The notes: generated by a model not told the origin, from the letters alone. Shown: positions 7,483 through 24,570, counted from the first letter of the stretch. The stretch: DNA of 64,000 nt from Candidatus Calditenuis fumarioli (GCA_030059665.1 JANVYR010000001.1:352001-416000), one strand, 5' to 3'. Made by a program: numbers and translations.

Positions 7483-8268
7483 TCAGGTGAAGAAACCGAT
7501 CAGGAAGAGCGCGAGGGCCGGAGCGAAGTGCTTCATCCACTCGGACCGGCTGTAGCTGAGGACCTTCAGTCCGTCCAGGGGCCCGAACGGGAGGAGGTTG
7601 AAGAAGGCGAGGAGCGCGTTGATCCTGGCCACCGTCAGCGTCAGGTGGATGAGCCGAGGTTCCGCTCCGAGCGCTGTCAAGCCGAATCCCAGTGCGAACG
7701 TGACCGAGGAGATGAGGGTGTTGGTGAGCGGCCCCACAGCTGCGACCTTCGCGAAAGTCCTGCTGTTGGGTGCGCCGAAGATGTTCACGGCACCGGGTGC
7801 TATCACCTTGAAAGGCGAGAGGATCGAGATTGCGGTGATCAGCGCCCCGATCGGCGATACCCTGAAGACCGCGAGGTAACCGTGTCCGATGGCGACGAAC
7901 TTGTGCGCGAGCTCGTGGACCAAGAACGAGAACACGAACGCCACCACTGCAGCCGCTGCGAAGACGGGCCCCAGACGTCCGAGGTCGAAGAGCGTGGCTC
8001 CGACGCCCGCGACCAGCAGCGCTCCGACCGAGAGGTGAAGCGCCTCCGAGGAGCTGATCCTGAGGGACGTCGAGGAGAGCCTGGCCTTGACCAGAGGGGC
8101 CGATTGGGACCTCTCCTCCATGGCCTTGATCTCGACCGGCGAACGGGCCTGGTGGAGGAACTCGCAGTCGTGGGCCTCGGGGAGCCTGTGCTCGGCGCAG
8201 TGGTAGCGACCGCAGTAGGCGCACCTGAAGGGCAGAACCTCCTCCCTCCCGCACTTCTCGCACCTCAT
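7483..8268 (-). CDS. AN1-type zinc finger fused to a site-2 (M50) intramembrane metalloprotease
   Basis: N-terminal C..C....LPF.C..CG..HC..H..PE.H.C; HELAH zinc motif; AGP and NLLPFGPLDG motifs in TM segments. Confidence 0.85.
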   Translation of the reverse strand: MRCEKCGREEVLPFRCAYCGRYHCAEHRLPEAHDCEFLHQARSPVEIKAMEERSQSAPLVKARLSSTSLRISSSEALHLSVGALLVAGVGATLFDLGRLGPVFAAAAVVAFVFSFLVHELAHKFVAIGHGYLAVFRVSPIGALITAISILSPFKVIAPGAVNIFGAPNSRTFAKVAAVGPLTNTLISSVTFALGFGLTALGAEPRLIHLTLTVARINALLAFFNLLPFGPLDGLKVLSYSRSEWMKHFAPALALFLIGFFT

Positions 8269-8454
8269 CGCCAGACGTCGCCCCTGTACCCAGCTTACGG
8301 AGCTACGCCCGCACCTCGGGTGATAACCCTTTTTCCGGGCCTGCAGGACTGCGAGTTCACCTGAGGGTCATGAGGCCGTCGATTCGTCGATGAGCTGCCC
8401 TCCGGAGACCGAACGGAAAAAGGCCGAACGATTGGACGGTCTACTCGATCGAAC

Positions 8455-9573
8455 TCAGGGGGAGTAGAGGATCTCGGGTCCCGGCTCCTTCGTCAGAACG
8501 CCCACCTCGACCGCCTTCGAGAACATGGTCGTCGTGACCGATTTGGCGTCGCTCCTCCAGATGGGTATGGTCAGGTACTGGACGTCCCTGGCGAGGATTC
8601 CGGAGAGCATCACGCCCCGCTCGACGTTCATGCCCTTGGCCAGTATCCTGTCCGCCTCCTCGGGGTTCCTCCGGATGAAGTCCTCGACCTCCTGGAACAT
8701 CGCTATCATCCTCTCGACGAAGCCGGGGTTCGCCTTCAGGAAGTCCTCCCTGACGGCGGTGACGAGGTAGACCGCGTAGGGCTGACCCGTGATCTCGCGC
8801 CAGAGGTCCTCGAAGCTGACGACCCTCCTGATGTTAGGGTTCTCCTTCCTGGCCAGAGAGATGTGCGGCTCCACGAGGACGGCCGCGTCGACCTCACCGG
8901 TGATGAGCCTGCTCCTGGCGACGGGGTAGGCAGATGGGACAATGGTGATCTCCTTCTCGACGTCGATGCCTACGGCCTTACCGTAGGTCTTCAGTACGAC
9001 GAACTCGGTAGCGCCCACGTCGATCGCCAGCTTCTTCCCCTTGAGGTCGGCGACCGACCTGATGTTCGGGTCCCTCGTGGCAATGATCACCGCGGACATG
9101 GGAACGAGCGTGTTGGTTATCTTCAGCTTCACGCCCTCGAGGTACATCCTCTGGAAGACCAGGGGCCCTCCACCTGGTATGACGTCCGCCTCGCCGCTCG
9201 AGATGGTGGCGTAGAACCCGGCGATCGTCGGCTGCGGCACCCATGTGATGTCGAGCCCGTGCTTCAGGTCGAAGCGCTTCTCCTGTATGATGAGCTGGAG
9301 GAACTGCATGTAGCTCGGGAACGCTATGCTAGCGAATCTCACCTTGATCGGTGCTGGCGGCGATGGCGTGACGGTTGCGGTCACTGTGACCGTCGTCTGC
9401 CTCTCGACCGTCGAGGTGACCGTCTCCCTCACGACCCGCGTAACCTCCTTGGCCGGGGCTACTGCAGGTCCAATGGCCAACGCTCCGATTACGAGCCCCA
9501 CCACCAATGCGACCACTATGAGCGCTCCCGCAACGGCACCCGAGATCCCGAGAGACCGCATAGCGTTTCTCAT
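8455..9573 (-). CDS. ABC transporter substrate-binding protein (SsuA/NMT1-like)
   Basis: N-terminal membrane anchor, Thr-rich linker, and I.SVADLKGKKLA and L..GEVDAAVL.EP motifs. Confidence 0.8.
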   Translation of the reverse strand: MRNAMRSLGISGAVAGALIVVALVVGLVIGALAIGPAVAPAKEVTRVVRETVTSTVERQTTVTVTATVTPSPPAPIKVRFASIAFPSYMQFLQLIIQEKRFDLKHGLDITWVPQPTIAGFYATISSGEADVIPGGGPLVFQRMYLEGVKLKITNTLVPMSAVIIATRDPNIRSVADLKGKKLAIDVGATEFVVLKTYGKAVGIDVEKEITIVPSAYPVARSRLITGEVDAAVLVEPHISLARKENPNIRRVVSFEDLWREITGQPYAVYLVTAVREDFLKANPGFVERMIAMFQEVEDFIRRNPEEADRILAKGMNVERGVMLSGILARDVQYLTIPIWRSDAKSVTTTMFSKAVEVGVLTKEPGPEILYSP

Positions 9574-13446: not shown

Positions 13447-14046
13447 CTAAAACCTCTGCGAAGTGGACCTTGGTCGGATCACCAGCTTGATCATACCCCG
13501 AGAGACGGTCTGGTTGATCACGTCGATCCCGTAAACGTTAAGCATCTCCCTCGCGGCCACGGATACGGCCTCCGTCGTCTCCACGGAATCCCCCACACCG
13601 ATAACCGATATCTCGAGCCCGTCCTTCCCCAGCTCCCTCAGCTCGACGCGCTTAAGCGGGAAGAAGTACGAGAAGAGCGCCGCGAGGCTCACGAGTTCCT
13701 CGAAGCTCGGGGCGTACGTCTTCATCAGGAGGCCGACGTCCCTGCCGAGCTGGCTGAAGAGGGAGAAGAGCCTTTTCCGGTCGTGGGAGTAGAGCTCCTT
13801 GATCAGCGCGTCCATGAAGTAGGAGGGGAGAACGACGGCGTCCGCATCCCTCAGGACCTTGTAGACCTTCCAGAGGTTGGAGATGATCGCGTCGCTCCCG
13901 CTCTCCCGGACGACCTGTATCCCCTGCTCGAGGATGGACGAGGCGAGCGCGTAGACGGACATCTTCCTCTCCTTCGCCAGCTCCGAGAGCTTCTCGGCCA
14001 CATCACGCCTCACAGCGAGCGTGGTCCTCCCTTTGCTGGAGTCCAA
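13447..14046 (-). CDS. Hypothetical protein with an N-terminal ribbon-helix-helix-like segment
   Basis: RTTLAVRRDVAEKLSELAKERKMSVYALASSILE fits an RHH strand-helix-helix pattern; the C-terminal domain is unassigned. Confidence 0.6.
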   Translation of the reverse strand: MDSSKGRTTLAVRRDVAEKLSELAKERKMSVYALASSILEQGIQVVRESGSDAIISNLWKVYKVLRDADAVVLPSYFMDALIKELYSHDRKRLFSLFSQLGRDVGLLMKTYAPSFEELVSLAALFSYFFPLKRVELRELGKDGLEISVIGVGDSVETTEAVSVAAREMLNVYGIDVINQTVSRGMIKLVIRPRSTSQRF

Positions 14047-14111: not shown

Positions 14112-14612
14112 TCAACCCGCAGGTGCCTGCTGGGCGCGCTCCTTCAGCAGGAGCCTTATCTTCCCCTCCTCGTCCTTCTTCACGAGGTATCCGGGGGCGT
14201 TCACGATCTGATCCCCTATCGCGATGTGCCTGTGGACGACCAGCTGCCTTGCGTGGTAAATCGTCTTGGCCAACCCCAACCTGTAAACGACCGTCTGGAG
14301 CCGGCGCTCGAGGATGTCCCGAACGGTGAGCTTCAGCACGTCGTCTGCGGTCGCGTTCTCGGACACAAGTCCGTACTTGGCCAAGGTCCTGATCAGCTCC
14401 GACTCCTTTCTGGCCCGCTCCTCGCCGCTGAGGACGAACAGGCTCCGGGCTATCTTCCTGTACTTCCTCAGGATCGCCTGCGCCCTCCACAGCTCCCGCT
14501 TGTTCCTGAGGCCGTACTCGCCCACCAGCCTGAGCTCCTCCATCAGCCTGTCGGCGCGCCAGGGATGCCTCGGCGTCTCGTACTTCTTCCTCGGTCTCTT
14601 CGGATCGCCCAT
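14112..14612 (-). CDS. rps4: 30S ribosomal protein S4
   Basis: MGDPKRPRKKYETPRHPW, YGLRNKRELW, LERRLQTVV and ARQLVVHRHI. Start reassigned to the ATG at 14612. Confidence 0.97.
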   Translation of the reverse strand: MGDPKRPRKKYETPRHPWRADRLMEELRLVGEYGLRNKRELWRAQAILRKYRKIARSLFVLSGEERARKESELIRTLAKYGLVSENATADDVLKLTVRDILERRLQTVVYRLGLAKTIYHARQLVVHRHIAIGDQIVNAPGYLVKKDEEGKIRLLLKERAQQAPAG

Positions 14613-14712
14613 CCCGATCGACCCTCTATGAGACCCATTTAGTCCTATCGGCTCGCCTGGGAGAAGCGCGGGCGGAGACACGGAAAAATGCCGCGAGATC
14701 AGTCTATCGAAC

Positions 14713-16500
14713 GTGAGCGTCAGGGACCTGATCGCGGGGTACGTCGAGGCTGCCCTCGGAGAGCGCGAGCTCACGCTCCTCATCAGGGGTGCATCTGTCC
14801 TGAACGTCTTCTCGGGGGAGCTGGAGGACGTCAATATCGGCGTCTACCGGGACAGGGTCGTCTACCTCGGCAGGGAGGAGAGGAGGGCCGAGAGGGTGCT
14901 GGACGTGAAGGGGGTCGCGGTTCCTGGGTTCATCGACACGCACCTGCACATCGAGAGCAGCATGGTCACGCCGGCAAGGTTCGCGGAGGCCGTTCTCCCC
15001 CACGGGACCACCACTGTGGTTGCCGATCCCCATGAGATCGCGAACGTCCTCGGCAAGGAGGGCGTCAGGATGATGCTGGAGAACTCGAGGGGCTTGCCGC
15101 TGAAGGTCTACTACTTCATGCCGACCTGCGTGCCGGAGTCCGACGCGGTCACAGCAGGCGCTGAGATAACGCCCGAGGACGTGGAGGAGGCCCTCGGCTG
15201 GGACGGGATAGCAGGGCTCGGAGAGGTGATGGACTACGAATCGGTACTGGCCAGGCGGGAGAAGTTCATGCGCATCCTGGAGGCAGGCTGGAGGAGGAAC
15301 TCGGTGATAGACGGCCACTGCGTCCTCCTCTCCGGTGCCAGGTTGAACGCGTACATCGCTGCGGGGCCTGAGGCGGACCACGAGAACTTCACGATCGAGT
15401 CGATGCTCGAGAAGCTCAGGCGAGGGATGTACGTCAAGCTGAGGGGCCCGTACATCCTCGATCCGAGGAGGTTCGTCGAGGCGCTGAAGGGATTGCCGAA
15501 CGGCTGGGAGAGGGTCGTCTTCGTGACGGACGATGTGATGCCCGACACGCTGCTGGAGAAGGGGCACCTCGACTTCGTCGTCAGGTCGATGATCGAGGCC
15601 GGGATGGACGAGGTCGAGGCGATCAGGAGCGCGACCCTCAGGCCGGCGGAGCACATGAGGATGCGGGATCTCGGCGCGATCGCACCTGGAAGGATCGCTG
15701 ACGTCCTGATCCTCAGGGACCTCAGGAGGGTGGATGTTGACCTGGTGGTCGCGAGCGGCGTTCCGGTTGCGAGGGGTGGAAGGCTGATCGTTCAGCTCGA
15801 GAGGAGGAGCTTCGACCGGAGGGCTTACGGCACGGTGAGGGTCAAAGAGCTCAAACAGGAGGACTTCGTCTTCAGGGCCCCCATCAAGGAGGGCAGGATG
15901 AGAGTGAGGGTGGTTGACTTCCCGAGGCCAGAGGAGATCGCCGGCGACGTCTCCTGGACCTTCCTCCAGATGATCGTGACGAAGCTGTCGGAGGCTGAGA
16001 TCGAGGTCCGAGATCACAGGCCGGTGCTCGGCGAGGTGGCGCTGATGAAGGTGATCGAGCGTCACGGGAAGCACGGGTCGAGCGGCGTGGGGTTCGTACG
16101 GAACCTCCTCAGGAGGGGCGCGGTGGCAACAACGGTCGCTCACGACTCCCACAACCTCGCCGTCGTAGGAACGAACCCGGTCGACATGCACGTCGCAGCG
16201 ACGGAGGTGATCAGAGCGGGAGGCGGGATGGCTGCAGCACTTGACGGGAAGGTTCTGGCCCTGATCGAGCTGCCGATCGCGGGGCTGATGTCGGAGGAAC
16301 CGGTGGAGGTGATGGCGGGTAAGATGAGGGCGTTCCGGGAGGCCCTCAGGAGGCTCGAAGCCATCGACCACCCGTACATGCCTCTGATCTCGCTGATGAC
16401 GCTCTCCGTGATACCGAGGGTCAGGGTCACCGACAAGGGGCTCTTCGACGTTATCGAGCAGCGCTTCCTCGATCCGGTGATCGAGGCCGTTCCGAGCTGA
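14713..16500 (+). CDS. ade: Adenine deaminase (binuclear amidohydrolase)
   Basis: PGFIDTHLHIES, DPHEIANV, DGH, DHE, TDD and TVAHDSHN. Confidence 0.9.
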   Translation: MSVRDLIAGYVEAALGERELTLLIRGASVLNVFSGELEDVNIGVYRDRVVYLGREERRAERVLDVKGVAVPGFIDTHLHIESSMVTPARFAEAVLPHGTTTVVADPHEIANVLGKEGVRMMLENSRGLPLKVYYFMPTCVPESDAVTAGAEITPEDVEEALGWDGIAGLGEVMDYESVLARREKFMRILEAGWRRNSVIDGHCVLLSGARLNAYIAAGPEADHENFTIESMLEKLRRGMYVKLRGPYILDPRRFVEALKGLPNGWERVVFVTDDVMPDTLLEKGHLDFVVRSMIEAGMDEVEAIRSATLRPAEHMRMRDLGAIAPGRIADVLILRDLRRVDVDLVVASGVPVARGGRLIVQLERRSFDRRAYGTVRVKELKQEDFVFRAPIKEGRMRVRVVDFPRPEEIAGDVSWTFLQMIVTKLSEAEIEVRDHRPVLGEVALMKVIERHGKHGSSGVGFVRNLLRRGAVATTVAHDSHNLAVVGTNPVDMHVAATEVIRAGGGMAAALDGKVLALIELPIAGLMSEEPVEVMAGKMRAFREALRRLEAIDHPYMPLISLMTLSVIPRVRVTDKGLFDVIEQRFLDPVIEAVPS

Positions 16501-16512
16501 GGTCCCGATGAG

Positions 16513-17922
16513 GTGAGGTCGTTGACGTTCGACCTCTTGCTGAGGAACTGCAGGGCGGTGGACGTCACGGGCGTCCAGGAGTGCGACGTGGCGATAGAGG
16601 ACGGAAGGATCGCGAAGCTCGCGAGGAACGCGGAGGACCAGGCCGATCGCGTGATCGACTGCCGGGGGATGCTAGTCTTTCCCGGAGCGATAGACGGACA
16701 CGTCCACTTCGAGATGGATTACGGACCCGGCATCAGGACCGCCGACGACTTCAGGACAGGGACCGAGAGCGCGGCTTGCGGCGGGGTTACGACGGTCATA
16801 GACTTCGTGACGCCCAGGAGGGGCCAGTCCCTGATAGAGGCCTTCGAGGAGCGCCTCGGCGCGGCCCAAGCTAAGGCGGTGGTGGACTTCGGGCTGCACG
16901 TCTGCGTGCTCGAGGTCAACGGGCAGCGCCTGTCTGAGCTGAGGCACCTCGTCTCGGAGCGCGGCGTGGCATCGGTCAAGGTCTTCACCGCGTACAGGGC
17001 GAGGGGATTGATGATAGACGACGGCTCGCTGGTCAGGCTCGCCAGGGAGCTGGCCGCGATGGACGTCCTGATGCTCTGCCACTGCGAGAACGAGGACATG
17101 ATCGCGAAAGCAACGGAGGAGCTGGTTTTCGAGGGGAGGACGGGAATCGAGCACTACGAGTCGAGCAGGCCGGACTTCGCCGAGGCCGAGGCCGTTAACA
17201 GGATAGGTTTTGTCTCGAGCCTCACGGGCGTCGAGTTCCTGGTGGTCCACATCTCCTCGGCAGCAGCGCTCTCCTCCCTGAGGGCACTCAAGAGGTCAGG
17301 GGTGAGGGCGAGGGGGGAGACGTGCCCGCACTACCTCCTCTTCACGAAGGACCTGTACGCCACCGATAGGGGCCCGCTGTACGTGATGGCTCCACCGCTC
17401 AGGACCGAGGTCGACAGGAGGAGCCTCTGGCAGGGCATCGCCGACGGAGCGATCGACGTGGTGGGTAGCGACCACGCGCCCTACCTCGCGGTTCACAAGT
17501 CGAGGTCGAAAGACTTCAGGGAGGTCCCGGGAGGGGTCCAGGGCACGGAGGTGATCGTGCCGGTGCTCTTCTCGGAAGGAGTTCGTAAGGGGATAATCGG
17601 GCTGGAGAGGTTCGTCGAGCTGACGTCGCACAACCCCGCCAGGCTCTACGGCCTCTCCCACCGGAAGGGGAGGATCGCGGTGGGATGGGACGCGGACCTC
17701 GTGGTGCTGGACCCGTCGAAGAGGGTCAGGCTAGGTAAGGAGGTGCTCCACAGCGCCCTCGACCACTCGATCTACGAGGGCATCGAGGTGACGGGCTACC
17801 CGGTCATCACGATCTCCCGCGGCGAGGTGGTGGCAGAGAACGGTCAGGTCCTCGGGAGGCCCGGAAGGGGCCAGTACCTCCACCGCAGCAGGAAGAGGGC
17901 GGAACCCGTTCAGCTCAGGTGA
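16513..17922 (+). CDS. hydA: Dihydropyrimidinase/hydantoinase (HyuA-like cyclic amidohydrolase)
   Basis: PGAIDGHVH, carbamylated-Lys motif SVKVF, HCEN, VHIS, ETCPHYL, PPLR and SDHAP. Confidence 0.88.
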   Translation: MRSLTFDLLLRNCRAVDVTGVQECDVAIEDGRIAKLARNAEDQADRVIDCRGMLVFPGAIDGHVHFEMDYGPGIRTADDFRTGTESAACGGVTTVIDFVTPRRGQSLIEAFEERLGAAQAKAVVDFGLHVCVLEVNGQRLSELRHLVSERGVASVKVFTAYRARGLMIDDGSLVRLARELAAMDVLMLCHCENEDMIAKATEELVFEGRTGIEHYESSRPDFAEAEAVNRIGFVSSLTGVEFLVVHISSAAALSSLRALKRSGVRARGETCPHYLLFTKDLYATDRGPLYVMAPPLRTEVDRRSLWQGIADGAIDVVGSDHAPYLAVHKSRSKDFREVPGGVQGTEVIVPVLFSEGVRKGIIGLERFVELTSHNPARLYGLSHRKGRIAVGWDADLVVLDPSKRVRLGKEVLHSALDHSIYEGIEVTGYPVITISRGEVVAENGQVLGRPGRGQYLHRSRKRAEPVQLR

Positions 17923-19184
17923 CGCCTCAGCTCCTCCACCTCAGGCGATATCAGCGGGACCTCACCCACCCCTCCCAGAAGCTTCTCCACCTCCTTCAGC
18001 CCCGAACCGGTCACGAGCACCACCACCCTGTCCGACCTGTCCAGGAAGCCCTCGTCGAGAAGCCTCCTGAGGGCCGCAAGCCCCACAGCACCGGACGGCT
18101 CCGCGAACACACCTGCCTTAGAGGCCAGAACCCTGACCGCATCCATGATCTCTTCGTCGGGCACGGCAACTCCCTTCCCTCTGGTCTTCTTGACACCCTC
18201 GATCGCGGCGTCTCCGTCCCAGGGGAAGGGGTCGAGTAGGCCTGATGCGACGGACCTCGGGTTCGGCTCGGGCTGGATCCGCTCAAAGGGGATGCCCGCG
18301 TTGATCGCCCTCACCAGCTGCTGGTTCCCCTCCGGCTGGACCGGTATCAGCATTGGAAGCTCCTCCTCCCTCAGGATTCCCAGCGCCATCAGGTCCCTGA
18401 GGCCCTTCCAGAGACCGGTAAGGAAGCATCCGGACCCCGTCGGGACGAGGACCGCGTCGGGCGACTTCCATCCCAGCTGCTCCACCAGCTCGTAGACGAC
18501 GGTCTTGGGGCCCTCGACTTGGTACGGGTTGAAGGGGCCGAAGCTCGGGCACGGGTACCAGCCGAAGGCCCGGACCGCCTTGACCATGAGGTCCACCGTC
18601 GGGTCCTTTCCCGGCTCAACGGCCCTCACCCGGAAGAGCTTTGCGCCGAAGGTGATCAGCTGGGCCGCCTTCCCTAACGAGACGTCCTCGGGGACGAAGG
18701 CGTAGCAGGAGATTCCGGAGGAGGCGCAGTAGGCCGCGAGGGATGAGGCAGCGTTGCCGCTGGACGCGGTGACCGCCACCCTCTTCCCCAGCTCGACCGC
18801 CTTCGCGACCCCAACGGCCATCGCCCTGTCCTTGAAGGAACCGGTCGGATTTCGTGTCTCGTCCTTGAGGTACACGCTCCTTGTCCCGAGGAAGTCGTTC
18901 AGCCTCCTGGAGAATATCAGCGGGGTCCACCCCTCCCTCAGCGGGGCTGCGTGCTCCTTCGATGCTGGCATGAGCTCCCAGTATCGCCAGACGCCCATCT
19001 CCACCGGACGCGACGCTATCGTCTCCCTCCCGAGGACCTCCTTGACGGCCTCGTAATCGTAGACCACGTCGAGCCTGCCGAGGTCCATGTTGTCGCACAT
19101 CACCGGCCCCTGCTCGGGCCTGTACCTCCTGCCGCACCTCGAGCAGATCAGCTCCACCACGAACCGACTTCGCCCGCCCCCCAA
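17910..19184 (-). CDS. Threonine-synthase-fold (type II PLP) enzyme, probably not a true ThrC
   Basis: N-terminal Zn-ribbon-like CSRC, NPTGSFKDR (PLP Lys), SSGNA, VPTGSG and EPSGA. Residues that normally bind the substrate phosphate appear substituted. Confidence 0.75.
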   Translation of the reverse strand: MGGGRSRFVVELICSRCGRRYRPEQGPVMCDNMDLGRLDVVYDYEAVKEVLGRETIASRPVEMGVWRYWELMPASKEHAAPLREGWTPLIFSRRLNDFLGTRSVYLKDETRNPTGSFKDRAMAVGVAKAVELGKRVAVTASSGNAASSLAAYCASSGISCYAFVPEDVSLGKAAQLITFGAKLFRVRAVEPGKDPTVDLMVKAVRAFGWYPCPSFGPFNPYQVEGPKTVVYELVEQLGWKSPDAVLVPTGSGCFLTGLWKGLRDLMALGILREEELPMLIPVQPEGNQQLVRAINAGIPFERIQPEPNPRSVASGLLDPFPWDGDAAIEGVKKTRGKGVAVPDEEIMDAVRVLASKAGVFAEPSGAVGLAALRRLLDEGFLDRSDRVVVLVTGSGLKEVEKLLGGVGEVPLISPEVEELRRHLS

Positions 19185-19191
19185 ACGCAGC

Positions 19192-20559
19192 TCACCTTCT
19201 CAGCGGAAGGGGCTCAACGGCCTCCGGGGGTGAGGTGCCGAGCCTCTCCCAGAGCCTCTCGATGGTCCGGAGGACCCTCCTCTCCGCCTCCTCTCTGTCC
19301 ACGGTGAGGAGCCTGCCATCACGGACGATCTGCCTGCCTCCGACCACGACGTGCCTGACGTCACCGCCGCTCAGCGCGTTGACCACGTACGCGTATGGGT
19401 CCCCTGTCGTGGGCGTGGCAAGGACCCTGGGCCTCAGGACCACCACGTCTGCGAGGTTCCCAGGCGAGATCGAGCCGTAGTTCCTCATCCCGTAGGCCTC
19501 CGCGGCCCTCTTCGTGACCATCTCCAGCACCTGTCGGGGACTGAGAGCCCTTGGGTCCCTCTTCGCAACTCGGTGGAGGAGGAATGCAGCCCTGGCGTTC
19601 TCGAGCATGTCGAAGACGTACCCGTCGTTACCGAGGCAGACGTTCACACCCGCGGTTAGCATCTCGGGAACCGGTGCGACGCCGACCGCGTTCAGCATGT
19701 TGCTCATGGGGTTGTGGGCCACGCTGGTCCTGTGCCTCGCGAGGGTCGCCACCTCGCTCAGCGTGAGGTGGACGCAGTGTGCTAGGACGGCCCTGCTGCT
19801 CAGCGCCTCGAGGTCCTCCAACCGCTCCACCGTCCTCTTCCCGTACCGCTCGATGTTGTGATAGACGTCGTTCGGTCCCTCAGCGACGTGGATCGTTATG
19901 GGGCAGTTGTACCGCTTTGAGAGCTCTACGCCCTTCCTGATCAGCTCGTCGGAGACGGTGAAGGACGCGTGGATGCTGACCATCCCGTACGCGTTCCCCT
20001 TGGGGCCTTTGAGGTACCGTTCGTTCTCCCGGAGGCCCCTCTCGCCCTCCTCGGCGCTCCTCCGCTCGGTCGCCTCGAAGGCAATGAAGCCGCGGATCCC
20101 CACCTCGTTGACGGCGTTGGCTATCGCGTCGAGGGAGCCCTCGATCCCGTTCGGCGCGGAGTACGTGTCGGCGAAGCAGGTGGTACCGGTGAGGGCCATC
20201 TCCATGCAGGCCGCAAGGGCTGTCGCGTAGGCGTCGTCGTTCGTCAACCTCTCGTCCAGAGGCCACCAGACCCTCTGGAGGATCTGCAGGAAGTCCGACG
20301 GAGGCTTCACCTCGAGGCTAGCCCCCCTCAGCGCTATGCCGTAGAGGTGCGTGTGACCGCAGAAGAGCCCCGGCAGGACGAAACCTCCCCTCGCGTCTAT
20401 CACCTGGTCTGGCTTCCCCTCCCGCTCCACCTCATCGGCCCTCCCGACCTTCGCGATCCGGTCGCCCTCGATCAGCACCGCGCCGTCGTGCACCACGCCG
20501 AGCCTCTCGTCCATCGTGATGACAACCCCGCCTCGAACGAGGAGCCTCTCCTCCGCCAT
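19192..20559 (-). CDS. ssnA: SsnA-like amidohydrolase
   Basis: CGHTHLY, DFLQILQRVWWPLDERL, SAPNGIEGSL, FEATER, HASFTV, IHVAE and LGNDG closely follow my recollection of E. coli SsnA. Start reassigned to MAEER at 20559. Confidence 0.78.
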   Translation of the reverse strand: MAEERLLVRGGVVITMDERLGVVHDGAVLIEGDRIAKVGRADEVEREGKPDQVIDARGGFVLPGLFCGHTHLYGIALRGASLEVKPPSDFLQILQRVWWPLDERLTNDDAYATALAACMEMALTGTTCFADTYSAPNGIEGSLDAIANAVNEVGIRGFIAFEATERRSAEEGERGLRENERYLKGPKGNAYGMVSIHASFTVSDELIRKGVELSKRYNCPITIHVAEGPNDVYHNIERYGKRTVERLEDLEALSSRAVLAHCVHLTLSEVATLARHRTSVAHNPMSNMLNAVGVAPVPEMLTAGVNVCLGNDGYVFDMLENARAAFLLHRVAKRDPRALSPRQVLEMVTKRAAEAYGMRNYGSISPGNLADVVVLRPRVLATPTTGDPYAYVVNALSGGDVRHVVVGGRQIVRDGRLLTVDREEAERRVLRTIERLWERLGTSPPEAVEPLPLRR

Positions 20560-20573
20560 CGTCACCCACCACC

Positions 20574-21581
20574 TCAGATAGAGCTGAGAGCCTTGATCGC
20601 GTAATCGAGGTTCCCGCTCAGCAGCAAAATCAGTGGGGCCGTGCAGCCGTGCCTCATGTACTCCTCGATCTTCTTTTTGACCTCCTGGGGCGTCCCGGAT
20701 GCGGTGATCATCCTCACCACCTCGTCCGGAACTATCTCCATCGCACGCTCGATCCCGCCGGGCTTCGCGGGCCATCCTCCCATCGCTTTCTGGACCTCCT
20801 CGATCAGGTCCTCGCTTACGCCGCTCGCCTTCATGATGTGAGGCTGCTGGCCGAGCGTCATCGTCACGTGCTTCTTCGCGACCTTGACCGCCCTCTCCCC
20901 GTCCTCGTCGATCGAGCAGGCGATCAGCTGCGGCCTGTCGATGTCCTCCAGCCTCCTGCCAGACCTCTCGGCTCCCCTCTTGATGTGCTCGAGGGCCTTG
21001 TCGTTGTACGCAGGCGACACTAGGTAGTTCAGCAGGACCCCGTCCGCGATTTCACCGGCCAGCTCCATCATCTTGAAGCCCGTGGCTCCGATGTAGATGG
21101 GGACGTTCCTCGGAACCTGTCCCTTCCCGTGCAGGACGTCGAGCCTGATGCCCCTAACCTTCACGAACTTACCCTCGTACGTGACCTCCTCCATCCTCAG
21201 CAGCCGCCGGATCACCTCGACGTACTCCCTCATGCACTGCAGCGGCTCCTTCCTCTCTATCCCGACCTTCCAGGCGAGCGGGTCCCACCAGGCCCCGAGC
21301 CCCAGCATGACCCTGTTGTCGGCGAGCTCGTCAAGCGTCGCGAAGGTCTGCGCTATCAGGGCGGCGTTCCTGGTCCAGGTGTTGATCACGCCCGCACCAA
21401 CCTTGATCCTCTCCGTCACCGTCGCTATCGCGGTCATCGGGACTATCGCGTCCCTCGAGAGCCTCGACTCGGCCACCCATGCGGACTCGAAGCCGTGCTT
21501 CTCGGCCATCTGCGCGTACCTCACCATGTCCCTCACGTGCATGTCCTGGAGGTAAAGTCCGAGCCTGGGTATGGACGCCAC
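20574..21581 (-). CDS. LLM-class (Mer-like) F420/flavin-dependent oxidoreductase
   Basis: [28 protein letters not shown]...R..LGLG and [21 protein letters not shown]. Confidence 0.88.
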
Positions 21582-21684
21582 AACAGTAGATTGCGTTGTT
21601 CCGTGATAAGTTTGCGTTCACCTGGTCACCGCCGCCACCAGCCCCGGAAAACTTTTACCTTATCTGGTACGTCCCCTGGGTGAC

Positions 21685-21915
21685 ATGCCGGTCCAGGCAT
21701 ACGTGCTGATAAGGGCGCGCACAGGTAAAGCGAGGAACGTGGCCGAGGCCATCGCGAAGGTGACGGGGTGCAGATCGGTCTGCACGGTGACGGGCAGGTA
21801 CGACGTCATAGCCCTCCTCGAGGCGGAGGACCTCAGGAGCCTGGGAGACCTGATAATTCAGAAGACCCACACGATCGACGGCGTCGAGAGGACCGAGACG
21901 GCGTTGGTCGTCTGA
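21685..21915 (+). CDS. Stand-alone Lrp/AsnC ligand-binding (RAM) domain protein
   Basis: 76 aa with AYVLI, VTGRYDVIA and I..IDGVERTET; no HTH. Confidence 0.85.
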   Translation: MPVQAYVLIRARTGKARNVAEAIAKVTGCRSVCTVTGRYDVIALLEAEDLRSLGDLIIQKTHTIDGVERTETALVV

Positions 21916-21970
21916 TCAGCCAACCATCGAACCGATGCCAATTTTATTAATGTGACCTGAAATTGATTCT

Positions 21971-23518
21971 ATGGGCATGAGCCACCCCCGAACCCCTCTC
22001 GTCTCGATGAGGGGGATAACGAAGAGATTCCCGGGAGGGGTTGTTGCGAACGACCGCGTCGACTTCGACCTTTACCCGGGAGAGGTGCACGCGCTGCTCG
22101 GTGAGAACGGTGCGGGAAAGACGACGCTGATGAACGTCCTCTACGGCCTCTACGCCAAGGACGAGGGCGAGATCTACGTCGACGGCAAAAGGGTCGAGAT
22201 CAGGTCTCCGAGGGACGCCATCAGGCTCGGGATCGGCATGGTCCACCAGCAGTTCAAGCTGATACCGCGTCACACGGTCCTAGAGAACGTTGTGCTGGGC
22301 CTGAAGGAGGCCGGGTTCGTGCTGAACTACCGGAGGCTCAGGGAGGTGTTGACGAAAATCGTGAGGGAGTACGGCTGGAACCTCGACCCTGACGCGTACG
22401 TCTGGCAGCTCACGGCGTCGCAGAAGCAACAGGTGGAGATCCTGAAGCTTCTCGTGAGGAGGGCGAGGGTGCTGATTCTGGACGAGCCGACGTCCATCCT
22501 CACCCCCCAGGAGACGACCGCGCTCTTCGAGAGCATCCGTTCCATGGCGTCCAAGGGGATCGGCGTGGTGCTGGTGACCCACAAGCTCGAGGAGGTGATG
22601 CGCGTCTGCGACAGGGTGACCGTGATGAGGAGAGGTAAGGTGGTGGCCGTGAGGAAAAGGGATGAGCTGAACGCGGAGGAGCTGGTGACGCTCATGGTCG
22701 GTCGAAGGATCGAGCGCGTCTACCAGGTCTCCTCGAGACCGTCGGAGAGGAAGGTGCTCGAGGTGCGGGACCTCGTGGTGCTCGACGACAGGGGATCATT
22801 GGCGGTGAAGGGCGTGAGCTTCCACGTCTGTGCCGGAGAGGTCTTCGGGATAGCGGGGGTTGCGGGGAACGGGCAGGACGAGCTCCTCGAGGCGATCTAC
22901 GGCCTCAGGAAGGCGGTCTCAGGCAAGGTCCACCTGAACGGCAGGGACGTCACGAACCTGCCCACGTGGGAGCTGGTTAAGGAGGGCGTTGCGATGATCG
23001 TGCCGGAGGCCGTAAAGGGCGTGGGCCTCGGCCTCACCGTCGCCGAGAACCTCATGCTGAAGTGTTACAGGTACGCACCGTACTCGAGATACGGCCTGCT
23101 GAGGAGGAGGGAGCTCGAGGAGGCCGCGAGGAGGCTTGTCGAGGAGCTGAAGATCGTGACGAGGTCAGTCAACGCTAAGGCCTCCACCCTCTCAGGCGGC
23201 AACCTGCAGCGCCTGATGGTCGCGAGGGAGCTCTTCGCCAACCCCGGACGTCGGACCCCCGTCCTCCTGCTTGCCTCCCACCCGACGAAGGGGCTGGACG
23301 TGGCAGCCACAGATTACGTAAGGAGGTTGATCCTGAGCGTCCGCGACAGCGGAGCGGCCGTCGTTTTGCTCTCGGACGACTTGGAGGAGCTGATATCGTT
23401 GAGCGACAGGATAGGCGTGATGTACAAGGGCGAGATGCTGGCCGTCCTGGAGAAGGAGAGGGCGGAGGTCGAGAAAATAGGGATGCTGATGATGGGCATG
23501 AGGTCCGTGTCGCCTTAG
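21971..23518 (+). CDS. ABC transporter ATP-binding protein with two NBDs (nucleoside/sugar CUT2 type)
   Basis: ITKRFPG.VAND.V, GENGAGKTT, GMVHQ.F, LDEPT, GVAGNGQ, LSGGNLQR and PTKGLDV. Confidence 0.9.
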   Translation: MGMSHPRTPLVSMRGITKRFPGGVVANDRVDFDLYPGEVHALLGENGAGKTTLMNVLYGLYAKDEGEIYVDGKRVEIRSPRDAIRLGIGMVHQQFKLIPRHTVLENVVLGLKEAGFVLNYRRLREVLTKIVREYGWNLDPDAYVWQLTASQKQQVEILKLLVRRARVLILDEPTSILTPQETTALFESIRSMASKGIGVVLVTHKLEEVMRVCDRVTVMRRGKVVAVRKRDELNAEELVTLMVGRRIERVYQVSSRPSERKVLEVRDLVVLDDRGSLAVKGVSFHVCAGEVFGIAGVAGNGQDELLEAIYGLRKAVSGKVHLNGRDVTNLPTWELVKEGVAMIVPEAVKGVGLGLTVAENLMLKCYRYAPYSRYGLLRRRELEEAARRLVEELKIVTRSVNAKASTLSGGNLQRLMVARELFANPGRRTPVLLLASHPTKGLDVAATDYVRRLILSVRDSGAAVVLLSDDLEELISLSDRIGVMYKGEMLAVLEKERAEVEKIGMLMMGMRSVSP

Positions 23519-24570
23519 CCGCCCATCGTCATGACCATGACGGCCTTCTGGACGTGGAGCCTGTTCTCCGCCTGCTCGAAGTAGAGCGAGTACTCCTTGT
23601 TGTCGATCACGTCGTCCGTCACCTCCTGGCCCCTGTCCGCAGGTCCGCAGTGCATGTACTTGCCCTTGTTGGTCAGATCCATCAGCTCCTGCGTGCAGAT
23701 CCAGTGCTTGAACTTGTTCTGGTACTCGACGGCGCCCTCCTTGTCGACCTTGCCGTTGTAGGGCGGGAAGAACCCCTTCGGTGACCACGCCTTCGGGTAG
23801 ACGAAGTCGGCTCCCTCGAACGCCTCCCTCATGTCGTGGACTATCTCGAAGCTGCCTCCGTACCGGTCTGCGTTCTCCTTTGCGGCCTTTATCACGTGGT
23901 CCTCGAGCTCGAAGCCCGGCGGGTGTGCCAGGACGACGTCCATTCCGAACATCGTTCCTATCAGCACGCACGATTGAGGCACCGCCAGAGGCTTCAGGCC
24001 TCCGGAGTAGGCATAAGAGACGACGAACTTCTTGCCGCGCGGGTTCGGGGCGACGTCGGTTATCGCCATGATGTCAGCGAGGGCTTGGAAGGGATGGTAG
24101 ACGTCGTCCTCCATGTTGAGGACGGGGATGCTGCTCCACTTGGCGAACTCCCTGACGACCCTGTGACCGCGCCCGATGTGCCACTTGGCCGCGTCGCCGT
24201 AGATCCTGATCGCGATCGCATCGCCGTACCTGCTCAGGACCCTCGCGACGTCGGCTATCGACTCGGTCTGATATGGAACCATGTCCTCGGGGAGCGTCGG
24301 CGTGTAGACGTCCTGGGGGCTGAGGAAGTGCGCGTGTCCTCCCAGCTGGAAGATTCCGGCCTCGAACGAGTTGCGGGTCCGGAGGCTTCGGTTGTAGAAG
24401 AGCATGAAGAGCGTTTTTCCCTGAAGGTACGGCGTTGGAATCCTCGACCTGAACTTCGTCCTGAGGTCCCTGGCAGCCTCCAGGACCTGCTCGATCTCCT
24501 CCCGCGTGAAGTCGTTCGTGTTCAGGAAGTGCCTGCCCCTCAGGAGGCCTGCGTACCTGGGCAGCTCCAT
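23515..24570 (-). CDS. ygeW: YgeW-like carbamoyltransferase (ATCase/OTCase superfamily)
   Basis: NRSLRTR, HPFQ, YAYSGGLKPLAVPQS, FGMDVVLAHP, YPKAWSP and HCGPAD match YgeW (AYSPSYGKPLSVPQ, YPKSW, HCLPAD) rather than ArgF or PyrB. Start set at MELPRY. Confidence 0.75.
   Translation of the reverse strand: MELPRYAGLLRGRHFLNTNDFTREEIEQVLEAARDLRTKFRSRIPTPYLQGKTLFMLFYNRSLRTRNSFEAGIFQLGGHAHFLSPQDVYTPTLPEDMVPYQTESIADVARVLSRYGDAIAIRIYGDAAKWHIGRGHRVVREFAKWSSIPVLNMEDDVYHPFQALADIMAITDVAPNPRGKKFVVSYAYSGGLKPLAVPQSCVLIGTMFGMDVVLAHPPGFELEDHVIKAAKENADRYGGSFEIVHDMREAFEGADFVYPKAWSPKGFFPPYNGKVDKEGAVEYQNKFKHWICTQELMDLTNKGKYMHCGPADRGQEVTDDVIDNKEYSLYFEQAENRLHVQKAVMVMTMGG

Follow-up and report, generated by a model that had tools for sequence, protein, structure and literature searches.

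The reductive degradation of urate by way of 2,8-dioxopurine, as described in Escherichia coli and Clostridia, involves XdhD-YgfM, YgfK or UacX, SsnA, HyuA, YgeW or UacY, YgeY, YgeX, and YqeA (PMC12507026; bioRxiv 10.1101/2025.04.24.650524). Exchange of the ring reductase is already documented, with YgfK in E. coli versus UacX in C. difficile, and SsnA clusters (IPR017700) of Chloroflexota have been mentioned, in one figure panel (Fig. 3c), as having a luciferase-family, putatively F420-dependent dehydrogenase partner (PMC12507026). Both 2025 papers cover bacteria only (PMC12507026; bioRxiv 10.1101/2025.04.24.650524). Here we analyze eight contiguous genes at positions 14713–24570 of a 64,000-nucleotide (nt) stretch of DNA, hereafter the window (GCA_030059665.1 JANVYR010000001.1:352001-416000, G000:C1:352001-416000 in our coordinates; G+C about 63%), from Candidatus Calditenuis fumarioli. 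The source assembly (1.57 Mb, 91% complete) belongs to a Calditenuis-like member of the Caldarchaeales (formerly Aigarchaeota), with Candidatus Calditenuis and Calditenuaceae as nearest relatives. A first-pass annotation of the window had proposed that the eight genes encode an archaeal counterpart of the bacterial reductive purine route, and knew of no archaeal description of it. All eight genes were present where it had placed them, each matching a named family, and our full-text literature searches likewise found no paper linking archaea, Aigarchaeota, or Calditenuis to the pathway, although coverage was incomplete and an earlier description is possible.

Genes were called from a listing of open reading frames (ORFs) together with Pfam and NCBIfam scans using curated cut-offs, and the whole genome was searched by tblastn with the E. 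coli urate-cluster proteins. For synteny, the window and second-locus proteins were mapped onto each of 31 loci with SsnA-like relatives. On balance, results favor an F420-linked variant of the reductive 2,8-dioxopurine pathway as the most probable, if far from certain, reading, with the gene set spread over three loci on one contig and one third of it in the window. The substrates, cofactor, and products of all enzymes are predictions from sequence and genomic context. In the proposed route, a Bmp-type ABC importer, whose ATPase is encoded in the window, would take up purine bases or nucleosides, and adenine deaminase and a second deaminase would feed oxopurines (from adenine and probably guanine) to two xanthine-dehydrogenase-like molybdenum (Mo) enzymes that interconvert oxopurines, by analogy to 2,8-dioxopurine. 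A Mer-like enzyme of the luciferase-like (LLM) family would then reduce the purine ring with F420H2 regenerated by NADPH:F420 oxidoreductase (Fno), replacing YgfK/UacX; the SsnA-like amidohydrolase, coupled to this reduction, would open the first ring at once, and the hydantoinase would open the second to give a diureido C3 acid. Two non-ornithine carbamoyltransferases, the window enzyme and a second copy (CTase2), would stand in for YgeW plus YgeY by phosphorolytically cleaving the ureido groups, with carbamate kinase turning carbamoyl phosphate into ATP. A fold-type II pyridoxal phosphate (PLP) enzyme would finish the C3 diamino acid, the candidates being the ThrC-like protein and possibly a CysK-like protein whose gene is translationally coupled to that of the transferase in Caldarchaeum. 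Two ring-opening amidohydrolases and two ureido-cleaving transferases fit a bicyclic substrate, and the missing YgeY and YgeX are proposed to be replaced by non-orthologous enzymes.

The SsnA-like protein was placed in an IQ-TREE phylogeny of 150 representatives from an exhaustive search plus E. coli SsnA and GuaD and the genome's own paralog. Archaeal SsnA-like proteins formed a 9-row clade (support 97/91) that was sister to the canonical SsnA clade (14 rows, 100/100), and the joint clade (99/98) stood apart from rows resembling methylthioadenosine/S-adenosylhomocysteine (MTA/SAH), 8-oxoguanine, and guanine deaminases, as well as from the genome's own paralog. In the alignment, three columns unite SsnA with the archaeal clade to the exclusion of the deaminases, compared to zero for other groupings. 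The phylogeny therefore gives a well-supported placement of the protein in a sister subfamily of SsnA, outside the clade containing E. coli SsnA, while automatic annotations label its relatives as MTA/SAH deaminases. Wherever the sequence before an archaeal SsnA-like gene was available (25 loci), the gene immediately preceding it encoded an LLM protein, and in the order-level sample the SsnA-like gene and the LLM ortholog shared the same distribution (this genus and all of family f2, and nowhere else), always as adjacent genes. Among the SsnA-like relatives, P0123 (45% identical; L045:781-4493) is encoded directly after a methenyl-H4MPT cyclohydrolase-family gene and near a creatininase-family gene, convergent with a second amidohydrolase, in a context unlike the purine clusters.

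Judged from its family matches, the LLM enzyme is not Mer itself and is probably F420H2-dependent: its 15 best NCBIfam matches were F420 families (the best FMN family reached 66 bits), and eight of eight PDB matches were F420 enzymes. CofD, CofE, and Fno are all encoded in the genome and scored above cut-off, with the Fno gene situated 6 kb before the second locus. The use of an LLM protein (PF00296) in place of YgfK/UacX beside an SsnA-type gene recalls the Chloroflexota clusters; however, those are bacterial and contain the canonical SsnA family. An LLM homolog with 61% identity (P0380) was encoded among unrelated housekeeping genes, so that an identity of about 60% to the LLM protein does not always imply a link to the pathway.

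The same gene order was found in two Calditenuis-type genomes, with proteins 79–93% identical, and in more distant Caldarchaeales, with proteins 60–89% identical, and this recurrence in relatives shows that the arrangement is conserved and not a matter of chance. The three loci of the present genome correspond to a single cluster in nine Caldarchaeum loci. Genes there run permease, permease, ABC ATPase, Bmp, and Ade on one strand, then LLM, SsnA-like, FAD subunit, FeS subunit, Mo subunit, and CTase2, with an opposing operon of carbamoyltransferase, CysK-like PLP enzyme, V4R, ThrC-like enzyme, and carbamate kinase. In one of these (L033), a 4-nt overlap joins the SsnA-like and FAD-subunit genes within the operon from LLM to CTase2. 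Caldarchaeum and E. coli (ygfK-ssnA-ygfM-xdhD) share the order reductase, SsnA, FAD subunit, Mo subunit. Nitrososphaerales loci contained a Mo enzyme, CTase2, LLM, SsnA-like amidohydrolase, hydantoinase, deaminase, and carbamate kinase, with one carbamoyltransferase and no ThrC-like gene, so that three conserved ORFs in this cluster could be non-orthologous replacements; these ORFs (L026:5313-6266, 8116-8904, and 15838-16767) had no Pfam or NCBIfam match. A further metagenomic locus (L048) encoded an LLM (62%), two Mo trimers, XdhC, Ade, a deaminase, a ThrC-like protein (50%), CTase2 (59%), and carbamate kinase.

Similarities to the bacterial 2,8-dioxopurine route thus comprise a xanthine-dehydrogenase-family Mo enzyme with a FAD subunit, a reductase gene directly before an SsnA-type gene, a TIGR02033 hydantoinase, and a non-ornithine carbamoyltransferase accompanied by carbamate kinase. 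In contrast to the bacterial route, the archaeal reductase is an F420-type LLM rather than YgfK/UacX, the SsnA-like protein belongs to a sister subfamily, two carbamoyltransferases lie outside the YgeW clade, ThrC-like and CysK-like PLP enzymes are present where YgeX was not found, and the M20 peptidase YgeY was not found. The genes are also spread over three loci, and the host is a seemingly aerobic and thermophilic archaeon.

The second locus (C1:240.5-251.5 kb) lies on the same contig, about 115–125 kb upstream of the cluster, and encodes a FAD/FeS/Mo trimer, carbamate kinase (TIGR00746, 427 vs cut-off 358), CTase2, a second FeS/FAD/Mo trimer, and a COG0402 deaminase. For both Mo subunits, the best models were xanthine dehydrogenases (PucD, 654 bits, and XdhA_XDHase, 480 bits). 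A search with E. coli XdhA returned eleven Mo-hydroxylase large-subunit paralogs, many for a 1.57-Mb genome, and no uricase was found in the genome. An FRGFG motif considered as the substrate arginine of the Mo subunits was ruled out, its 109-residue spacing identifying the cofactor-binding arginine. The third locus (C1:48.8-52.1 kb, about 315 kb upstream) encodes a Bmp/PnrA-type binding protein and two permeases without a tandem ATPase. The window ABC ATPase was the only tandem ATPase found in the genome, and in Caldarchaeum the tandem ATPase gene is located between two BPD_transp_2 permease genes and the Bmp binding-protein gene, next to Ade. The window ATPase therefore probably serves the predicted purine or nucleoside importer of the third locus. 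A candidate shared promoter motif, TTACACGTT, had two genomic copies, both upstream of pathway genes, and was dropped because chance alone gives about five shared 9-mers among the compared regions and about four genomic copies per 9-mer. Carbamate kinase was similarly abandoned as a phyletic marker, since its presence in 90 of the 251 genomes of the phylum sample makes it uninformative at that level.

These enzyme families would also be compatible with degradation of a bicyclic N-heterocycle other than urate or 2,8-dioxopurine, such as a modified purine or a pteridine like pterin or lumazine, with the Mer-like LLM acting on a pterin-like ring. Pterins are also among the substrates of Mo hydroxylases and COG0402 amidohydrolases. 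Mer, the closest characterized relative of the LLM enzyme, binds pterin, and the gene neighborhood of P0123 described above is in line with such a substrate. Nonetheless, we regard this explanation as distinctly improbable: the adenine deaminase, the Bmp-type importer, and a nearby phosphoribosyltransferase indicate purines, xanthine dehydrogenase models give the highest scores for the Mo subunits, and two ureido-cleaving transferases together with carbamate kinase match the diureido product expected from a purine.

The window carbamoyltransferase and CTase2 are 40% identical to each other, and by their position in a 14-row tree appear to form two separate clades that join YgeW without being YgeW orthologs. 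In this tree, which held no AOTCase, SOTCase, or PTCase references, the two archaeal transferases and YgeW formed a clade excluding the genome's own ArgF and E. coli ArgI (98/98), so the grouping with ArgF that would have spoken against the first-pass annotation was not observed. Among models, the window transferase scored 285.5 against a cut-off of 288 for acetylornithine carbamoyltransferase (AOTCase; NF003384), compared to 226 for CTase2, which reached 152 and 155 with the two YgeW models; among solved relatives, AOTCase was best (224 bits), compared to 140 bits for YgeW. As in Xanthomonas AOTCase (PDB 3kzc) and YgeW (PDB 3q98), both archaeal proteins keep the carbamoyl-phosphate motifs S(T/L)RTR and HPxQ and lack the ornithine SMG loop, with YPKAWSP (window) or FPRSWAS (CTase2) where YgeW has YPKSWAP and ArgF has DVFVSMG, and HCGPAD at the position of HCLPAD in YgeW. 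Unlike AOTCase, both archaeal copies belong to purine-type clusters that also encode carbamate kinase, while the genome has a canonical ArgF (378 bits) at another site. Orthologs of the window transferase (58–65% identical) were also located beside carbamate kinase and SsnA-type genes in Desulfurococcaceae-like loci and in one metagenomic locus (L054:77-17350). The latter encodes a canonical-clade SsnA (P0125), a UacX-like protein, two Mo enzymes, carbamate kinase, a ThrC-like protein, and an ortholog of each archaeal transferase (58% and 55%); no M20 peptidase was seen there. By this distribution, the pair of transferases may be widely used instead of YgeW plus YgeY.

The ThrC-like PLP enzyme of the cluster just passed the threonine synthase model TIGR00260 (176 vs cut-off 167.1), compared to 279 and 307 for two other paralogs in the genome. 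Motifs NSVNPxR and GNAGN are kept in all four solved threonine synthases and in the genome's canonical ThrC, whereas the cluster protein and its Caldarchaeum ortholog have FGPFNPYQ and GSGCF in their place, and the ortholog in L048 also lacks the canonical motifs. Residues Asn154, Ser155, Arg160, and Asn188 of the Thermus thermophilus enzyme, which we take to form the substrate-phosphate site, correspond to Gly, Pro, Gln, and Ser in the cluster protein, and Thr88 corresponds to Ala. We consider the protein a candidate for the lyase acting on the C3 diamino acid. The third ThrC paralog (G000:C1:811693-812964; L038:693-1964) is of the PRK08197 type (315.6 bits), has an N-terminal Cys-rich segment, and likewise departs from the canonical phosphate-site motifs. 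A CysK-like PLP enzyme that passes the cysteine synthase model (G000:C1:239461-240501, L006:5461-6504; L033:18746-19774) is encoded in this genome directly before the Mo-hydroxylase genes and after genes for a SerK-like kinase and an aminotransferase; in Caldarchaeum, its gene overlaps the carbamoyltransferase gene by 4 nt. The enzyme could thus act either in making cysteine or in the purine route.

These family assignments bear on whether the eight genes are merely chance neighbors with housekeeping functions, that is, threonine synthase, the acetylornithine carbamoyltransferase of an arginine pathway, an MTA/SAH deaminase, and an orphan LLM. An aspartate kinase gene lies 1.3 kb upstream of the cluster, the ThrC-like protein narrowly passes the threonine synthase model, the transferase nearly reaches the AOTCase cut-off, and SsnA-like relatives carry automatic MTA/SAH deaminase annotations, all in keeping with such an explanation. 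However, canonical ThrC and canonical ArgF are both encoded elsewhere in the genome, the ThrC-like protein lacks the motifs of solved threonine synthases as the transferase lacks the ornithine motif, and the SsnA-like protein is split from the deaminase clades at 99/98. Furthermore, the genes are linked to one another, and not to aspartate kinase, across Caldarchaeaceae, Nitrososphaerales, and the bacterial-type cluster, rendering a housekeeping assemblage very improbable.

Adenine deaminase was encoded within the cluster in 23 related archaeal loci, and the window protein fell narrowly under its TIGR01178 cut-off (Table 1). The hydantoinase encoded in the same operon passed TIGR02033, the model (IPR011778) that defines HyuA in published work (PMC12507026). 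It is 38% identical to E. coli HyuA (252 bits), compared to 323 bits for the Bacillus D-hydantoinase 1k1d, its best solved relatives being D-hydantoinases, and on sequence grounds it is not distinguishable from dihydropyrimidinases. The sole hydantoinase paralog in the genome adjoins a fused orotidine monophosphate (OMP) decarboxylase/phosphoribosyltransferase gene and is, by this neighbor, probably a dihydroorotase.

The first-pass annotation had named pyrimidine reduction as the main alternative. Here, the LLM would reduce uracil or thymine, the SsnA-like enzyme or hydantoinase would open dihydrouracil, the carbamoyltransferase would cleave N-carbamoyl-beta-alanine with phosphate, and carbamate kinase would make ATP, the purine genes being simply co-located in a nucleobase island. 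As in the Pyd pathway (PydA, PydB, and PydC), ring reduction, opening by a cyclic amidohydrolase, and ureido removal follow each other, and the hydantoinase falls in the PydB family model, passing the dihydropyrimidinase equivalog cut-off. A family (f7) that by inference is Desulfurococcaceae offers a parallel, with an SsnA-like gene (46–49% identical) in nine of its ten sampled genomes and a gene for a PreA/UacX-like DHO_dh-2x4Fe4S protein directly downstream of it. This neighbor suggests that the ring reductase was swapped while the SsnA-type partner stayed, an exchange matching the published one between E. coli and C. difficile (PMC12507026) and counted in favor of the purine pathway. The f7 operon (L052:3630-12705, also in L050 and L051) encodes DUF711, a carbamoyltransferase (65% identical), an unknown 306-amino-acid (aa) protein, a radical SAM protein, carbamate kinase, an EamA transporter, and the SsnA-like protein (46%), with no Mo enzyme or hydantoinase gene seen nearby. 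Such an operon could equip anaerobic hyperthermophiles with a minimal module for fermenting nucleobases with a gain of ATP. With a PreA-like protein of the dihydropyrimidine dehydrogenase type, one transferase, carbamate kinase, and EamA, it holds the full minimal set required for a single ring.

Pyrimidine reduction has nevertheless been weakened as an explanation for the window cluster and, although retained, seems unlikely. Contrary to the Pyd pathway, carbamoyltransferases and carbamate kinase take the place of beta-ureidopropionase, and the genes are linked to xanthine-dehydrogenase-like enzymes and adenine deaminase. In Caldarchaeum, translation of the SsnA-like gene is coupled to that of genes for a xanthine-dehydrogenase-like trimer, arranged as in the E. 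coli purine cluster, the hydantoinase gene shares an operon with adenine deaminase, and two ring-openers plus two transferases are more than pyrimidines require. The same transferases also occur in canonical-clade SsnA clusters such as L054, and no cytosine- or uracil-specific gene was seen.

Several observations weigh against the F420-linked purine pathway. The model pathway has been described in anaerobes, but this archaeon appears to be aerobic, and the f7 set of reductase, SsnA-like enzyme, one transferase, and carbamate kinase would also fit pyrimidine reduction. Curated cut-offs of the named families were not reached by the SsnA-like protein, the LLM, either carbamoyltransferase, or either Mo subunit. 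The two SsnA models (NF005540 and TIGR03314; IPR017700) were the best two matches to the SsnA-like protein yet remained below cut-off (344.9 vs 444 and 313.8 vs 455.5; next family, 278), the LLM reached 208 vs 348.7 with the Mer model TIGR03555, and the window transferase reached 150 vs 500 and 156.7 vs 453 with the YgeW models TIGR03316 and NF005538. The Mo subunits were likewise below the xanthine dehydrogenase cut-offs, and both lack the XdhD-specific insertion with Glu606. Since even E. coli XdhA itself is without the textbook active-site residues, these residues permit no inference on the substrate site of the archaeal Mo subunits. Whole-genome tblastn with YgeX returned just a 24% identical PALP match, which is no credible ortholog, and with YgeY just a 25% identical M20 peptidase far off in the genome. 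CofG and CofH (Fo synthase) were not found, which may mean that their genes sit in a part of the genome missing from the assembly (91% complete) or that Fo, the precursor of F420, is scavenged.

The proposal of an archaeal counterpart to the bacterial route stands in its outline: xanthine-dehydrogenase-like enzymes and carbamate kinase, both missing from the window, were found in the genome, the genes form a single cluster in Caldarchaeum with an E. coli-like order, and the synteny expected across archaea was recovered both as conserved order in Calditenuaceae and as the joined cluster of the nine Caldarchaeum loci. Three of the labels in the first-pass annotation need correction. The transferase is not a YgeW ortholog, being far below the YgeW cut-offs and nearer AOTCase by score; the amidohydrolase is sister to true SsnA and not grouped with MTA/SAH deaminases, but falls below the SsnA cut-offs and outside the canonical clade; and the HyuA label agrees with TIGR02033, while sequence cannot separate the hydantoinase from dihydropyrimidinases. 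A convincing YgeY or YgeX homolog, also sought in the genome, was not found. A more specific and rather doubtful version of the purine pathway, which we offer tentatively, is that in Aigarchaeota and relatives the LLM might dearomatize an oxopurine with F420H2, two dedicated transferases might yield two carbamoyl phosphates and hence two ATP per purine, and a ThrC-derived enzyme might act as terminal diaminopropionate lyase, with the same transferase pair operating in bacterial SsnA clusters that lack YgeY.

Table 1. Genes of the cluster and two adjacent ORFs, in window coordinates
Feature	Coordinates	Strand	Length	Details
Adenine deaminase-like amidohydrolase (Ade)	14713-16500	+	595 aa	PF13382 Adenine_deam_C, 167 bits; TIGR01178, 452.8 vs cut-off 472.5
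D-hydantoinase/dihydropyrimidinase family cyclic amidohydrolase	16513-17922	+	469 aa	TIGR02033, 437 vs cut-off 393.25
ThrC-fold PLP enzyme	17910-19184	-	424 aa	N-terminal Cys-rich segment; PALP, 245 bits
SsnA-like amidohydrolase	19192-20559	-	455 aa (from Met73)	Two top NCBIfam matches are SsnA models
Mer-like LLM oxidoreductase	20574-21581	-		PF00296 Bac_luciferase, 241 bits; top NCBIfam match Mer, 208 bits
RAM-only Lrp/AsnC ligand-binding domain protein	21685-21915	+	76 aa	PF01037, 49.8 bits
Tandem ABC ATPase	21971-23518	+	515 aa	Two ABC_tran domains
Non-ornithine carbamoyltransferase	23515-24570	-	351 aa (from second Met)	ORF extends to 24639; OTCace_N and OTCace domains
ORF between aspartate kinase and cluster	13447-14046	-	199 aa	No family match
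ORF between aspartate kinase and cluster	14314-14631	+	105 aa	No family match

The genes listed in Table 1 fall into several transcriptional groups. Ade and hydantoinase genes form a two-gene operon with Ade first and a 12-nt gap, while the minus-strand operon runs from LLM through the SsnA-like gene (14-nt gap) to the ThrC-like gene (7-nt gap) as its last member. The long SsnA-like ORF (19192-20775) runs into the LLM gene, and its most likely start is Met73. Genes for the RAM-only Lrp protein and the ABC ATPase are divergent from the LLM operon, and the carbamoyltransferase gene is convergent with that of the ATPase. A RAM-only Lrp gene upstream of the ABC ATPase gene was also present in Calditenuaceae loci L007, L008, L009, and L030, and this stand-alone RAM protein is possibly a small-molecule sensor. 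The flanks are unrelated to the cluster, with aspartate kinase and the two unknown ORFs (kept only in the closest Calditenuis-type genomes) on the 5' side and Hsp20, a DUF4443 regulator, OsmC, and PheRS on the 3' side.

It was not until 2025 that the reductive urate route was elucidated, and then solely in gut bacteria. If the F420-linked purine pathway proposed here is correct, the route would reach Archaea beyond the gut, including hot-spring Caldarchaeales, soil Nitrososphaerales, and possibly the family inferred to be Desulfurococcaceae. It would also provide testable roles for five enzyme types, namely an F420-type LLM as purine-ring reductase, a sister subfamily of SsnA, two carbamoyltransferase clades, and a PLP enzyme derived from threonine synthase. 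These results suggest that nucleobases may be a source of both energy and nitrogen for uncultured thermophilic archaea, which could aid the design of enrichment media.

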